From: a virus
Length of the DNA: 64,000 nucleotides
Direction: 5' to 3' (one strand)
Virus record (IMG/VR): IMGVR_UViG_3300023179_000086
Location: 9,400-73,399 of that record
Shown: in pieces, positions 15,811 to 63,829 of the stretch
Numbering within the stretch: the first letter of the stretch is position 1
Layout of the letters: every line of letters starts with the position of its first letter
Position numbers and translations under genes: made by a program
Notes under the pieces: generated by a model
What the model saw: the letters and a program-made list of their open reading frames with translations, nothing else
What the model was told of the DNA's origin: nothing
Database searches by the model: none

Positions 15811-16791
15811 ATGAATAAAATCATTGATAAAACTCTTTTTTACTATTTGCAGCGCAAAACCAAACGTTCGACGGGCGGATGGATAAGCACTAACGCCGTT
15901 TGTTGTCATCATCGTGGGCATAGACCTGATAGAAGAATGCGTGGTGGGTTAATTTACTCTGATGACAAGCTAAGTTATTCTTGTTTCAACTGTCAATTTA
16001 AATGTGGTTATTCTGTTGGTAAACTTTTTTCGTCTAATTTTAAGTTGTTTTTAAATTGGATTGGTATGGATGAAAAAGAAATACAACAGTTAGCATTTGA
16101 TGCGATGAAATCACGTGATACTAGTTTATTAATAAATAATTCAATATCAAACGAAGTTAATTTTAAAGAATATAATTTACCTCCCGATGCTATTCGACTT
16201 AATAAACATGATGAATCGCATTATAAATATATAGAATTTTTGTCAAATCGTGGGTTTTCATGTGATGATTATCCATTTTATATTACTCCAAATTCTACAT
16301 TAAGAGAAAAAGATAGAATCATTATACCATATTATTACGACAAAAAACTTGTTGGATATACAAGCAGATATTGCGATCATCGTAAACCTAAGTATATTTC
16401 TGAGCAGCAATCAGGATATGTTTTTAATATTGATGAGCAAGATCCAAGTTGGCAAATATGTATTGTTGTAGAAGGACAATTTGATGCATTAGCAATTGGT
16501 GGGTGTGCAATTATGTCAAACAATGTAAGCGAAAAACAGTCTTGGGTATTGAAAAAACTAAAAAGAAAAATAATATATGTTCCTGATCGTGATTTAGCAG
16601 GTATGGAAGGTATTCAATCTGCATTAGAATATGGATATGAAGTAAGCATACCACCTTATTGGGATCGTTCTATTAAAGATGTTAATGATGCGGTAATAAA
16701 GTACGGTCGTTTTCCTACGTTGTTAAGTATAATACAGCATGCTACAACAAGTGCTGCTAAAATTAAAATTTATAAAGATAAAATATTGTGA
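15811..16791 (+). CDS. dnaG: DNA primase (gp61/DnaG-like)
   Basis: Zn-binding CCH..CFNC, RIIIP, KY, Toprim VEGQFDA, PDRDLAG, KDVND. Confidence 0.9.
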   Translation: MNKIIDKTLFYYLQRKTKRSTGGWISTNAVCCHHRGHRPDRRMRGGLIYSDDKLSYSCFNCQFKCGYSVGKLFSSNFKLFLNWIGMDEKEIQQLAFDAMKSRDTSLLINNSISNEVNFKEYNLPPDAIRLNKHDESHYKYIEFLSNRGFSCDDYPFYITPNSTLREKDRIIIPYYYDKKLVGYTSRYCDHRKPKYISEQQSGYVFNIDEQDPSWQICIVVEGQFDALAIGGCAIMSNNVSEKQSWVLKKLKRKIIYVPDRDLAGMEGIQSALEYGYEVSIPPYWDRSIKDVNDAVIKYGRFPTLLSIIQHATTSAAKIKIYKDKIL

Positions 16792-18176
16792 AATTAGACT
16801 ATACAAAAGATATACAGCAATTTTTCTTATCAATGATGATTACTGAACCTAATCTGTTTATTCGTGTTCAAAACATATTAAATGCAGAAAATTTTGATCG
16901 TTCATTAAAAGATACAGTAAAGTTTATTATTGATTTTGCCAATAAATATCATGTTGTACCTGATCCTGAAAAAATTAAGCTCACAACAGATATAGAATTA
17001 ACAAAAATTGTTGATTTACGAGAACAAGATATTGAATGGTTTTTTGATGAATTTGAAAAATTTACACGAAAACAAGAATTAGAACGTGCAATTTTAAAAA
17101 GCGCAGATTTACTTGAAAAAGGTAATTATGATCCTGTAGAAAAAATTATTAAAGACGCAGTACAAATTAGTCTTACTAAGGATTTAGGCACTGATTATTT
17201 TGCTGATCCAAAAGGACGATTATTAGCAATTAAACAAAATAATGGACAAACGAGTACAGGGTGGCCTTGTCTTGATAATAAGTTATATGGTGGGTTTAAT
17301 CGTGGTGAATTACAGTTATTTTTAGGTGGATCAGGGTCGGGTAAATCATTATTTATGCAAAATCTTGCGGTGAATTGGGTTCGTGCAGGATTAAATGGGG
17401 TATACATCACTTTAGAACTTGCTGAAAATTTATGTGCATGGCGAATTGATAGTATGATGACAGATATTGCAACAAAAGAAATTTTTAAACAAATTGATGA
17501 TGTTGAACTAAAAATTAAAATGGCACAGAAAAAATCAGGTAAATTATTTTTAAAATATTTACCTGCTCAAAGTAATATCAATGATATACGTTCATATTGT
17601 CAAGAATTACAGGTGCAAACTGAAAAGAAGATAGATTTTCTGTGTATTGATTATATGGATTTATTAATGCCTGTATCAGTTAAAATCAATGCTAGTGATT
17701 TATTTACTAAGGATAAATTTGTAAGTGAAGAACTTAGAAATTTTGCAAAAGAATTAAATGTAATATTTGTAACTGCTAGTCAATTAAATCGTTCTGCGGT
17801 AGAAGAAGTAGAATTTGATCATAGTCATATTAGTGGTGGTATTAGTAAAATCAATACTTCGGATAATGTATTTGGTATTTTTACAAGTAGAAATATGCGT
17901 GAGCGTGGTCAATATCAGTTACAGTTAATGAAAACAAGAAGTAGTAGTGGTGTGGGACAGAAAATTAATTTAAAATTTAATGTCGAAACTTTAAGAATAT
18001 ATGATGACGAATCAGATGAAGAGCATACTACAGCATCATCTATTTTAGAACAGATTAAAGTTGGTAGTAATATTGTTCCAACTAACGTGGAGAATGAAAT
18101 AAAACCATCTCCTGTTGCAGATTTAAGTAGTAACTTGAAAGCTAAACTGCAACATTTTCGTAACATTTCCTCTTAA
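16788..18176 (+). CDS. dnaB: replicative helicase (gp41/DnaB-like)
   Basis: GGSGSGKS, YITLE, IDYMDL, TASQLNR, KTR. Confidence 0.92.
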   Translation: MKLDYTKDIQQFFLSMMITEPNLFIRVQNILNAENFDRSLKDTVKFIIDFANKYHVVPDPEKIKLTTDIELTKIVDLREQDIEWFFDEFEKFTRKQELERAILKSADLLEKGNYDPVEKIIKDAVQISLTKDLGTDYFADPKGRLLAIKQNNGQTSTGWPCLDNKLYGGFNRGELQLFLGGSGSGKSLFMQNLAVNWVRAGLNGVYITLELAENLCAWRIDSMMTDIATKEIFKQIDDVELKIKMAQKKSGKLFLKYLPAQSNINDIRSYCQELQVQTEKKIDFLCIDYMDLLMPVSVKINASDLFTKDKFVSEELRNFAKELNVIFVTASQLNRSAVEEVEFDHSHISGGISKINTSDNVFGIFTSRNMRERGQYQLQLMKTRSSSGVGQKINLKFNVETLRIYDDESDEEHTTASSILEQIKVGSNIVPTNVENEIKPSPVADLSSNLKAKLQHFRNISS

Positions 18177-58135: not shown

Positions 58136-58215
58136 GCATCGTTGGCTGAGTGGTCTAAAGCAATCGTCTGCAAAACGATTTATAACCGCAGGTTCAAATC
58201 CTGCACGATGCTCCA
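58136..58215 (+). tRNA. tRNA-Cys(GCA)
   Basis: GCATCGT/ACGATGC, loop CTGCAAA, U discriminator, CCA. Confidence 0.9.
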
Positions 58216-59487: not shown

Positions 59488-59937
59488 ATGAAAACCGTAC
59501 CAATAATTCAATCACGTCAATGTAATGGATGTTCATGTTGTTGCGAAGGATTCTTAAACGCAAAAATTTACGGTTTTAACATGAGTTTAAATGATGGTCC
59601 ATGTAGGTTTTTGATTAGAGACAAATGTGGTATCTATCCCGTAAGACCTGAATTATGCAAAAAGTTTTTATGTGGATGGAGAGAAAATACATCTTTTCCC
59701 GAATTTATGAAACCAAATTTAAGTAACATTATTCTTTTAAATAAATATATTGAAAACTTTTTTTACTATCGAATGGTTAAATGCAACATAAAAATTAAAC
59801 AAGAAGTTTATAATTGGGCTGAACAAGAATCAATGAATGGAAAACATTTTATTGGTTATGATAATGATGGTAATCCATTAATTTATTCAACAAGCGATGA
59901 GTTTAAGAAGTTAATTGAAGATAAAGGATTATTATGA
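59488..59937 (+). CDS. YkgJ-like CxxCxxCC metal-binding protein
   Basis: CNGCSCCC..PCRFL..CGIY..RP..CKKF.C. Confidence 0.8.
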   Translation: MKTVPIIQSRQCNGCSCCCEGFLNAKIYGFNMSLNDGPCRFLIRDKCGIYPVRPELCKKFLCGWRENTSFPEFMKPNLSNIILLNKYIENFFYYRMVKCNIKIKQEVYNWAEQESMNGKHFIGYDNDGNPLIYSTSDEFKKLIEDKGLL

Positions 59938-60290
59938 CACATTATTTTGGGTATCATCTTTTATTGGATTGTAGTGGATGCGAGAATATTAATGACCGCA
60001 TTAATATCTATAATTGGATAAAATATTTGGTGCCCACCATTGACATGGTTGCCGCAGGTGAACCATATCTTGAATATTTACTTGAAGGTGATCCAAAACA
60101 AGGATACACATTGATGCAAGCAATCACCACGAGTAGTATTACCGCACATTTTATGGAACTTGATGGTACTGCTTACATTGATATTTTTAGTTGTAAAACA
60201 TTTGATGTAGATTTGGCACAGAAGGTTATCCAAAATTATTTCAATCCAAAGAAAATTCGTGTAAATTATCTTACACGTCATGCAGATTAA
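59934..60290 (+). CDS. speD: S-adenosylmethionine decarboxylase family proenzyme
   Basis: GYHLLLD..GYT..ITTSSITAHF..YIDIFSCK.FD. Confidence 0.85.
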   Translation: MTHYFGYHLLLDCSGCENINDRINIYNWIKYLVPTIDMVAAGEPYLEYLLEGDPKQGYTLMQAITTSSITAHFMELDGTAYIDIFSCKTFDVDLAQKVIQNYFNPKKIRVNYLTRHAD

Positions 60291-60295
60291 AACAC

Positions 60296-60378
60296 GCTGA
60301 AGTCGCATAGTGGCAATTGCACCTGATTTGTAATCAGGCCCGAAAGGTACGTGAGTTCGAGTCTCTCCTTCAGCACCA
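60296..60378 (+). tRNA. tRNA-Thr(TGT) with enlarged variable arm
   Basis: GCTGAAG/CTTCAGC, stem CCTGA/TCAGG, loop TTTGTAA, CCA. Confidence 0.85.
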
Positions 60379-61296: not shown

Positions 61297-61545
61297 ATGA
61301 TACCTCAGTACACAATCAATGCCATTAACAATTATGTTGAAAATGGCATTATTCCAGGTGGTTTCCTCAAAGCAGTATTAACCAACGATTTGTTTGGTGC
61401 TTTAGCTCATGCTGATTCAAGTAATAAAGAAGCATTGTCTGAAATTTGCCAATATATTTACAATGAAATTCCTGCAAATTGTTGGGGTAGCAAAGAAATA
61501 CTTTTGAAGTATTCCAAATCAAAATTAGTTGACAACGTATCCTAA
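61297..61545 (+). CDS. hypothetical phage protein
   Basis: TAAGGAG RBS; PGGFLKAVLTNDL..CWGS. Confidence 0.8.
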   Translation: MIPQYTINAINNYVENGIIPGGFLKAVLTNDLFGALAHADSSNKEALSEICQYIYNEIPANCWGSKEILLKYSKSKLVDNVS

Positions 61546-61557
61546 TTAACATATAAT
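61529..61557 (+). promoter_or_regulatory. sigma70-type promoter
   Basis: TTGACA-17-TATAAT. Confidence 0.85.
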
Positions 61558-61581: not shown

Positions 61582-62058
61582 ATGCGATTAAATAAAGATT
61601 TCTACAACAGCCCTGTTACGGTAACTAGCATGAGAGCAGATAATTGCTCTTATGTACAAACAGACGGTGGACGGTCTGAAAGCGGATTTACAGTTGGTAA
61701 GAAACAAAAGCGTGATTGTGTACCACGAGCCATTGCAATATTATTAAACAAGCCATATAAAAAAGTATGGGGAGATTTATATGAGCGACAGTATAAAGCG
61801 GGATATGATTTTAATCCTGACAAAGGTGTTATTACTCATGTTTGGCAAAATTATCTTGCTGAACATGGTTACAAATATTTTTGTGTAAAGAAGTCAAGAA
61901 AATATGTATTACCTAAAGACATACCAATGGGTAAAGTTTTACTACATACAAGGGGGCATATTGCCGCTTGTATTGATCATACGATTTATGACAATTGGGA
62001 TAGTCGTACTAAAAAAAGTAAGCCACGTAAATTATATGGTTATGTAGTTATTGAGTAA
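61582..62058 (+). CDS. hypothetical protein, possible papain-like fold
   Basis: DGGR..DCVPRAIA..GHIAA.ID..IYDNWDS. Confidence 0.7.
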   Translation: MRLNKDFYNSPVTVTSMRADNCSYVQTDGGRSESGFTVGKKQKRDCVPRAIAILLNKPYKKVWGDLYERQYKAGYDFNPDKGVITHVWQNYLAEHGYKYFCVKKSRKYVLPKDIPMGKVLLHTRGHIAACIDHTIYDNWDSRTKKSKPRKLYGYVVIE

Positions 62059-62060
62059 AT

Positions 62061-62149
62061 GGGTGGTGCCCCCTACGGCGGTCTGTAAAACCGTTGGCAT
62101 TGTAAAGTAGGGAAGTTGCCTCGTGGAGCGTTACCATCACTACCCACCA
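62061..62149 (+). ncRNA. atypical tRNA-Tyr(GTA)-like RNA lacking a D-arm
   Basis: GGGTGGT/ACTACCC-A-CCA, stem GCGGT/ACCGT with loop CTGTAAA, non-canonical T-loop AGCGTTA. Confidence 0.7.
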
Positions 62150-62208
62150 TAAATTCGTGATTCTGTCACCATTAAATATTATTTTATATCAAATATTTTA
62201 TAAATATA

Positions 62209-62407
62209 GAACCTCGGTTTACACTTTTCCCGTTAGTACAAAGTGGGTATTGATATTTCCAAAATATCACGGTGCTTATGATCTACCGCAAAACCCGCCA
62301 TATGGGTGCATGAAAAATCATAGGAGGATACGATACCTTCCATATAAAACATCGTTGAGACAGGGTAAACAACTCAGTTTAGGGCTAATGAGGGTTAGTA
62401 GCTAAAC
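62209..62407 (+). ncRNA. structured ncRNA, possibly manA-motif-like
   Basis: TATAAATA just upstream; stems CACTTT/AAAGTG, TGATATTT/AAATATCA, TATGAT/ATCATA, GTTTAC/GTAAAC, GTTTAG/CTAAAC; family name from memory only. Confidence 0.5.
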
Positions 62408-62422
62408 ACTAATTTAAGTTTT

Positions 62423-62481
62423 AGGATGCTAACAGCAAATAAAAACATCAAACTGCTAATTTGAACCGTTAAATGCATCCT
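62423..62481 (+). ncRNA. small RNA presenting a Ser(GCT)-type anticodon stem-loop
   Basis: AGGATGC/GCATCCT closing stem; TCAAA-CTGCTAA-TTTGA. Confidence 0.5.
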
Positions 62482-62506
62482 GTATAAAAATCCAAAGAGA
62501 AATTAA

Positions 62507-63613: not shown

Positions 63614-63757
63614 ATGAAAATCAATAACAAAGATGATCCACTCTTTAGTATTACATCACGAGATTTAGAATGGTCTTATACTAAGGGTACAGGCGCAGGT
63701 GGACAAAAAAGTAAGAATTTTCCTGAATATAAAATTTTATCCCGGTGTGTAGGCTAG
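63614..63757 (+). pseudogene. truncated GGQ peptidyl-tRNA hydrolase / release-factor-domain gene
   Basis: AGGA RBS; ..LFSITSRDLEWSYTKGTGAGGQK then similarity is lost; frame ends inside tRNA-Pro. Confidence 0.7.
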
Positions 63758-63829
63758 TCAGGTCAAGTCACCGGCTTTGGGAGCCGGCGTGTTCGCACAT
63801 CGCAGGTTCGAATCCTGCCACACCGACCA
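63743..63829 (+). tRNA. tRNA-Pro(TGG) with enlarged variable arm
   Basis: CGGTGTG/CACACCG, stem CCGGC/GCCGG, loop TTTGGGA, extra GTG-TTCG-CAC arm, CCA. Confidence 0.9.

Follow-up and report, generated by a model that had tools for sequence, protein, structure and literature searches.

The 89-nt element at positions 62061-62149 (+ strand) of the window, that is, the whole 64,000-nt stretch of viral DNA analyzed here, is quite probably a phage gene for a working tRNA-Tyr with a non-cloverleaf core. Read directly from the sequence, it is a tRNA-Tyr-like gene that lacks a D hairpin. Comparison with its homologues shows the fold, through covariation; it also shows that the gene is sharply bounded, that its Tyr anticodon does not vary, and that it fills the Tyr slot of the tRNA sets of phages.

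Results

Position and parts of the element

The window comes from a viral record of 73 kb with an estimated completeness of 12%. Phage-like genes of the carrier included ribonucleotide reductase, helicases, and AdoMet decarboxylase; S-adenosylmethionine decarboxylase was located at window positions 59934-60290 (PF02675, E = 2.2e-15). The DnaB-like helicase at 16788-18176 was closest (47% identity) to those of the jumbo phages PA5oct, Phosso, and Atu_ph07, which fits the completeness estimate of 12% for a 73-kb record.

Nine ordinary tRNA genes on the same strand surround the element (57.5-63.8 kb), and ARAGORN did not assign Tyr to any of them. Three were large for isotypes with normally short variable loops: tRNA-Pro (63743-63829; 87 nt with a stem-loop variable arm), tRNA-Thr (60296-60378; 83 nt with a variable region of about 13 nt), and tRNA-Cys (58136-58215; 80 nt). 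All three were still scored as tRNA by Rfam.

The 5' end of the element lies two bases past the stop codon of ORF 61582-62058, whose sole match was phrog_3754, a PHROG without known function. The promoter-like site upstream of this ORF and the element (Table 1) is a possible transcription start region, judged by its consensus match; the count of promoter-like sites in the region was not above that in shuffles. Downstream, a terminator-like hairpin was observed at 62229-62247, 80 nt past the element. The 357 nt at 62150-62506 contained no convincing gene, and contigs of relatives in other metagenome runs matched parts of it, for example 62368-62484.

Every feature pointed out in the sequence-only reading was found in the element, with one refinement to the stem lengths described below. 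Among these were the Tyr anticodon arm at 62078-62094; the absence of a D arm, with ten bases only between the acceptor and anticodon stems; a GGCA/TGCC variable arm whose large loop holds GTAGGG, complementary to CCCTAC in the linker; and, at 62127-62133, a T loop that reads AGCGTTA instead of the consensus. The space for a D arm, GCCCCCTACG (62068-62077), reads G CC CCCTAC G. The acceptor strands, GGGTGGT(G) at 62061-62068 and (C)ACTACCC at 62138-62145 (in full, GGGTGGTG with CACTACCC), pair with one G-U pair. The variable-arm loop is 17 nt long, and its GTAGGG is the exact complement of the linker CCCTAC.

Table 1. Features of the element and its upstream region, in window coordinates
Feature	Positions	Strand	Remarks
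Promoter-like TTGACA-17-TATAAT, 12/12, upstream of ORF 61582-62058 and the element	61529..61557	+	Consensus match only
Acceptor stem, 5' strand, G1-G8	62061..62068	+	8 nt; pairs with 62138-62145
Two-base connector CC, at the place of ordinary tRNA positions 8-9	62069..62070	+	CC in 73/78 sequences
Linker helix, 5' strand CCCTAC, in the place of the D stem	62071..62076	+	Pairs with 62107-62112
G17, wobble partner of U35 (62095), between linker helix and anticodon stem	62077	+	
Anticodon arm GCGGT-CTGTAAA-ACCGT, 5-bp stem	62078..62094	+	Anticodon GTA (Tyr) at 62085-62087
Variable-arm stem, 5' strand GGCA	62096..62099	+	Pairs with 62117-62120
Variable-arm loop, 5' part TTGTAAA	62100..62106	+	Sequence varies; about 3-11 nt across subtypes
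Linker helix, 3' strand GTAGGG, inside the variable-arm loop (pseudoknot)	62107..62112	+	Pairs cross the variable stem
Conserved AAGT, putative D-loop stand-in contacting the T loop	62113..62116	+	Putative contact
Variable-arm stem, 3' strand TGCC	62117..62120	+	Covariation, 42 sequences
T arm: 4-bp stem GTGG/CCAT and loop AGCGTTA (62127-62133)	62123..62137	+	
Acceptor stem, 3' strand	62138..62145	+	79-sequence covariation
Discriminator A (62146) and encoded CCA (62147-62149)	62146..62149	+	

Response of standard detectors

ARAGORN made no call at the element in bacterial and mitochondrial modes at default thresholds, and in mitochondrial mode with a lowered threshold it made a mis-bounded call. 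The Rfam tRNA family RF00005 had no match over 61900-62400, either at the gathering threshold (29 bits) or at E <= 10, and no other Rfam family matched this region; the nine neighbouring tRNAs scored 39-71.5 bits against RF00005. The nested fold energy of the element was no better than that of shuffles (MFE -28 kcal/mol, z = -0.19); this value is uninformative, and the pseudoknot is outside what nested folding scores.

Homologues and gene boundaries

Pattern scans with script filtering located the element at at least 181 viral or metagenome loci, with at least 78 distinct sequences besides the window's own. The loci came from word scans of a viral collection and one scan of a metagenome collection. 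Many of them are the same contig present in two collections, or close relatives; 78 distinct sequences is therefore the fairer count, and counts of paired cells overstate the number of independent events. Ordinary tRNAs were also present at 180 of the 181 listed loci. No RNA sequencing run was identified that contains the element; the single run taken for RNA is probably DNA and contained just a relative. The exact 23-nt anticodon-arm word retrieved two near-identical elements with quite different flanks, together with a normal class II tRNA-Tyr (L004).

The homologues were not normal tRNA-Tyr genes with a D-arm deletion local to the window: the rearranged architecture was shared by 78 of 78 sequences. 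For the 77 distinct copies whose flanking sequence was long enough, identity between pairs averaged 0.29 over the 40 nt upstream, 0.82 over element positions 1-35, 0.90 over the last 29 nt of the element, and 0.27 over the 40 nt downstream. Column conservation in the same copies jumped to 1.0 at G1 and dropped past CCA, and the contig of a relative from one metagenome run diverged from the window precisely at 62060/62061. Flanks were unrelated between loci, with no conserved neighbour gene. By these comparisons, the element is a discrete gene with sharp boundaries.

No copy of the element was found in 50,697 GenBank phage records by megablast or blastn, with a second subtype also used as query. 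When the 2-kb region was compared with GenBank phages, megablast gave no match, and blastn matched only the neighbouring epimerase and one other stretch. A search of prokaryote genomes (185,579 species, one genome each) with a 19-nt T-arm word revealed no element; five exact matches to the word occurred in bacterial or archaeal genomes, none of them inside a tRNA-like element.

Covariation of the helices and the pseudoknot

A covariance model was built from 19 window-subtype sequences, gap-free on the window numbering, and was then used to align 79 distinct sequences. In the 19 sequences, the full structure with the pseudoknot was 98.8% paired, and the linker helix (element positions 11-16/47-52) was 100% paired, with both sides changed in four of its six pairs. 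The results for the 79 sequences are given in Table 2. Taken together, the four nested helices showed changes on both sides in 18 of 23 pairs. Overall, 99.3% of cells were paired, versus 82.4% in shuffles, and none of 500 shuffles attained any of the observed pairing measures. Sliding the partners by 1-3 columns lowered pairing to 34-63%.

Table 2. Pairing and compensatory change in the helices aligned with the covariance model
Helix	Cells paired	Compensatory pairs	Sequences
Acceptor helix	98.9%	6/8	79
Linker helix	99.8%	5/6	79
Anticodon stem	99.7%	5/5	79
T stem	99.1%	2/4	79

Because an alignment made with a covariance model is fitted to that model, the linker-helix count was repeated with a pairing-independent anchor, the six bases directly before the conserved AAGT. 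With this anchor, 467 of 468 cells were paired across the 78 sequences, which carried 29 different linker-helix sequences, including CCCGUC/GAUGGG, CACUAC/GUAGUG, CCGGUC/GAUCGG, and CUCAUU/AAUGAG. A search for homologues and for covariation of CCCTAC with GTAGGG was one of the checks proposed in the sequence-only reading, and these 29 paired variants support its view of a selected alternative fold rather than decay.

The crossing variable stem was 95.8% paired, with compensatory changes in all four pairs (MAFFT alignment, 42 sequences); its forms included GGCA/UGCC, ACUC/GAGU, ACCU/AGGU, and ACCC/GGGU. In one subtype, the MAFFT alignment sets the linker-helix 3' strand one column off, and it therefore served for the variable stem only. 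The covariance-model alignments, in which the variable-stem 3' strand is scattered, accordingly served for the nested helices only. Since the linker helix and the crossing variable stem both covary, the pseudoknot is judged to be real, and its support is covariation in both halves.

Two further features bear on the stacking of the helices. Element positions 17 and 35 were G/U in 61 of 78 sequences and A/C in 14 of 78. G-U and A-C wobble pairs are taken as isosteric, and this exchange argues for one continuous stack from the linker helix to the anticodon stem. At the other limb, 76 of 79 sequences retained G8-C78, and in the window a C-C mismatch stands where a fifth T-stem pair would be expected. 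The acceptor stem is therefore 8 bp and the T stem 4 bp long, not 7 and 5. The sequence-only reading had described a 7-bp acceptor stem with A-CCA; the A-CCA end was confirmed, and the stem length was not. The arms of 8 and 4 bp keep the same 12-bp total as in ordinary tRNA, where the usual acceptor and T stems are 7 + 5 bp.

Judged from textbook tRNA structure, the anticodon limb would consist of 5+1+6 stacked layers, approximately the length of the anticodon/D limb of ordinary tRNA. The strands are ordered differently than in a D arm. In the linker helix, the 5' strand runs directly into the anticodon stem, and the 3' strand enters from the variable loop and exits at the far (elbow) end into AAGU. 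The two-base connector must consequently span to the far end of a 6-bp helix, a geometric demand that counts against our reading.

Tyr identity and the vacant isotype slot

The anticodon loop was CUGUAAA in all 89 pseudoknot-type elements retrieved by scans that specified the T arm only, with U33 and A37-A38 invariant. The anticodon arm is canonical, with a 5-bp stem, a 7-nt loop, U33, and a purine at 37. Bacterial-type tRNA-Tyr is marked by a GUA anticodon, A73, G1-C72, and a long variable arm; GUA with A73 is a Tyr-type mark and not a serine identity. The element has all of these, its long variable arm being stemmed. In the homologues, the discriminator A73 was present in 78 of 78 sequences, G1-C72 in 77 of 78, and CCA in 76 of 78. 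The variable arm has a covarying stem of 3-4 bp, and its loop, unlike that of an ordinary arm, is engaged in the pseudoknot. Other canonical cloverleaf features, namely a D hairpin with G18 and G19, a 5-bp T stem, and a UUCRANY loop, are absent.

We examined which isotypes accompany the element. At the 181 listed loci, ARAGORN detected 2,396 tRNAs, with 73-210 for each of the other isotypes and three for Tyr. These ordinary tRNA-Tyr genes lay beside the element at three of the 181 loci (L248, L344, and L388), showing that the element is not always the sole Tyr tRNA. All 29 element loci with at least 17 isotypes lacked Tyr, and in 11 of the 29 no other isotype was missing. At control loci without the element, Tyr accounted for 7 of 236 tRNAs.

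In five whole records, every Rfam tRNA match was taken, its region was fetched, and its isotype was typed. One complete record (G003; 169 kb, 100% complete) and two partial ones (G002 and G004) each held 19 isotypes, with Tyr alone missing and the element within the tRNA cluster. A phage tyrosyl-tRNA synthetase (PF00579) had no match in the five records, one of them complete, so that a host enzyme would have to charge the element.

Two tRNAs in element-bearing clusters, at L277:51-126 (-) and L261:586-658 (+), have the anticodons CUA and UUA, and judging by these stop-reading anticodons they are possible phage suppressor tRNAs. A 95-nt tRNA at L257:2968-3062, for which ARAGORN gave a four-base anticodon call and left the isotype undetermined, may carry an insertion or intron.

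A possible elbow: AAGU and the T loop AGCGUUA

AAGT follows directly after the 6-mer complementary to positions 11-16 in 78 of 78 sequences, a figure that is not an independent count, as AAGT was the parser's own anchor; judged by eye, it also lines up in the 79 rows of the covariance-model alignment. The search patterns included the T loop and, for some scans, the anticodon loop as well, so that the invariance of these loops is only partly unbiased. The unbiased evidence comes from the T-arm-only scans for the anticodon loop and, for the T arm, from a scan anchored on the 5' half only. In the latter, 17 of 17 family matches had this T arm, with an identical T loop, and the 11 extra loci were chance matches.

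The T-loop consensus is UUCRANY, and m5U54 and pseudouridine-55 are the usual modifications in this loop of tRNA. Both U54 and U55 are replaced in AGCGUUA, and these two modifications could therefore not be made. The same T loop was found in 14 phage tRNAs with an ordinary cloverleaf, some of them in element loci. These comprised Ile-GAU/UAU, Val-GAC, Gln-CUG, and Glu-YUC tRNAs, at L206, L222, L334, L346, L354, L361, L399, L411, L135, L136, L139, and L156. Their D loops contained GG in 0 of 14 and AAGU in 10 of 14, versus GG in 1531 of 1533 and AAGU in 97 of 1533 for tRNAs with a normal T loop. From this association we infer that AAGU and AGCGUUA may form a matched alternative D-loop/T-loop elbow. 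As the T loop departs from UUCRANY and the usual G18/G19 partners are absent, an elbow that RNase P, EF-Tu, and the ribosome would accept is putative, a further point against our reading.

Discussion

Relation to known tRNAs and tRNA-like RNAs

The element resembles bacterial-type class II tRNA-Tyr in its GUA anticodon within a CUGUAAA loop, A73, G1-C72, CCA, and stemmed variable arm, and, like ordinary phage tRNA-Tyr, it lies in a phage tRNA cluster. With the class II tRNA-Tyr at L004 it has in common an exact stretch of 23 nt that spans the anticodon arm and reaches into the beginning of the variable arm. This match may bear on the origin of the element, and we counted it for a working tRNA-Tyr. 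The element differs from class II tRNA-Tyr in the lack of a D hairpin, an enlarged variable loop that pairs with the connector, acceptor and T stems of 8 and 4 bp, the T loop AGCGUUA, and the lack of an Rfam or ARAGORN score. Pseudoknots in tRNA-shaped viral RNAs are familiar from plant RNA viruses such as TYMV. The tRNA-like structures of these viruses are not decoding tRNAs, and their acceptor stem, at the 3' terminus of the RNA genome, is formed by the pseudoknot. In the element, by contrast, a pseudoknot takes the place of the D arm, and the tRNA is encoded by a free-standing gene of a DNA phage.

D-arm-less tRNAs occur in mitochondria, as in nematodes and in mammalian mt-tRNA-Ser, and the available portion of a review describes them as flexible molecules with a short unpaired connector (PMC7609411). 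The element likewise lacks the D hairpin and the canonical D-loop/T-loop contact; its connector, however, is held in a conserved 6-bp helix (99.8% paired), and its carriers are bacterial phages, not organelles. According to the same portion, tRNA-Sec and allo-tRNAs have 8/5, 8/4, or 9/3 acceptor/T stems, and the D stem of tRNA-Sec is 6 bp long (PMC7609411). With these RNAs the element shares acceptor and T stems of 8 and 4 bp (12 bp in all), a 6-bp helix at the D position, and a long variable arm. As far as the available text describes them, tRNA-Sec and allo-tRNAs keep a D hairpin and a serine-type identity, whereas the element has Tyr marks and forms its 6-bp helix with the variable loop.

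A designed D-arm-less tRNA, 'mini HisT', is described in the accessible part of PMC11551756 as accepted by E. coli HisRS, EF-Tu, and the ribosome. Evolved E. coli uses this tRNA, but in vivo it could do so only with a mutated pnp, a gene for an RNase involved in degrading tRNA (PMC11551756, same part). We took the acceptance of mini HisT as an indication that a D-arm-less tRNA is feasible in bacteria. The mini HisT described there is man-made, whereas the element is natural and widespread and has a pseudoknot. The available portions of the literature yielded no phage or bacterial tRNA with a pseudoknot in place of the D arm. The family may be included under a number in the PMC10690425 catalogue of candidate structured RNAs from IMG/VR, in whose accessible part one entry, DNAVirus_1423, overlaps with calls of tRNA-Tyr in some cases. 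The 2020 review of non-canonical tRNAs, in the portion available, places D-arm loss in mitochondria and does not contain the words 'pseudoknot', 'phage', or 'virus' (PMC7609411). The element is apparently a natural tRNA shape new outside mitochondria.

Alternative explanations

The sequence-only reading had offered a decoy and an aminoacyl donor outside translation as possible roles, both of which became less likely, since the gene fills an otherwise empty Tyr slot; a nuclease-resistant tRNA, its third suggestion, is compatible with a working tRNA-Tyr. As a decoy, the element would be a tRNA-Tyr look-alike outside translation, a sponge for a defence nuclease or another tRNA-binding host factor that spares the host tRNA-Tyr. 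We consider this unlikely. It would suit the three loci that pair the element with an ordinary tRNA-Tyr and the retention of the anticodon and variable arms while the core and T loop changed. Moreover, according to the accessible parts of PMC13096335 and PMC11555353, defence systems that cut tRNA-Tyr exist and are countered by phage tRNA-Tyr genes. However, a perfect acceptor stem, A73, G1-C72, and an encoded CCA are retained by 76-78 of 78 sequences, although a decoy needs none of these, and a decoy leaves unexplained why the ordinary tRNA-Tyr alone is missing from full phage sets. If the nuclease recognizes an ordinary variable loop, the element would also make a poor decoy, since its loop is locked in a helix.

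Less probable still, with only a slim chance of being correct, is a charged tRNA used off the ribosome, for example to supply a phage transferase with its aminoacyl group, or a regulatory RNA with tRNA-like ends for processing or stability. An elbow with AGCGUUA and without G18/G19 could hinder ribosomal use and leave charging intact, which would agree with the donor role proposed in the earlier reading. Nevertheless, an invariant anticodon loop including U33 and A37-A38 is expected for decoding and needless for a donor, and in the same phages AGCGUUA also occurs in cloverleaf tRNAs for Ile, Val, Gln, and Glu, which are most simply translational. The element lies among ordinary tRNAs, with unrelated flanks and no conserved neighbour gene. 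Finally, a decaying tRNA-Tyr pseudogene or a chance tRNA-like sequence with accidental complementarity, suggested by the rejection by standard tRNA finders and the ordinary fold energy, is refuted as far as sequence analysis reaches. The element is conserved in 78 distinct copies between unrelated flanks, compensatory changes occur in each of its helices and in the pseudoknot, and functional positions are invariant; the probability of decay or chance is negligible.

Proposed mechanism and implications

For the working tRNA-Tyr, we infer an L shape, charging, ribosomal use, and a possible selective advantage, along the following lines. Six connector bases after the acceptor stem pair with six in the variable-arm loop, in place of a D hairpin. 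The resulting linker helix would stack directly against the anticodon stem, with a wobble pair, G-U or A-C, between the two, and AAGU at its far end probably substitutes for the D loop as the partner of the T loop AGCGUUA. The pseudoknot may supply the stability missing from a D-arm-less tRNA. The RNA would be charged by the host tyrosyl-tRNA synthetase and would read UAU/UAC for the phage.

A variable loop locked in a helix may allow the RNA to escape defence nucleases that cleave tRNA-Tyr, and resistance to exonucleolytic decay is a further possible advantage. The accessible parts of PMC13096335 and PMC11555353 state that the PtuAB of Septu and retron-Eco7 cuts tRNA-Tyr in the variable loop, discuss the tRNA-Tyr of phage T6 as a possible decoy or supplement, and report that the tRNA-Tyr of T5 is resistant through a distinctive variable loop. 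A broader proposal, which we put forward tentatively and regard as rather doubtful, is that a natural tRNA with a pseudoknot for a D arm is used in bacterial translation and, with the AAGU/AGCGUUA tRNAs for Ile, Val, Gln, and Glu, belongs to a re-engineered, defence-proof phage tRNA set that tRNA finders partly miss.

If the element is charged and decodes, it would be a natural tRNA that serves the bacterial translation machinery without a D hairpin, and it would represent a third route to the L shape besides the cloverleaf and the floppy mitochondrial forms. The apparent Tyr gap in otherwise complete phage tRNA sets would be explained, and a whole family would have been overlooked by standard annotation tools. 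On the same condition, the element would be a candidate structural escape in the tRNA-Tyr arms race described in the available portions of PMC13096335 and PMC11555353. It would also offer a compact, possibly nuclease-resistant scaffold for engineered tRNAs.
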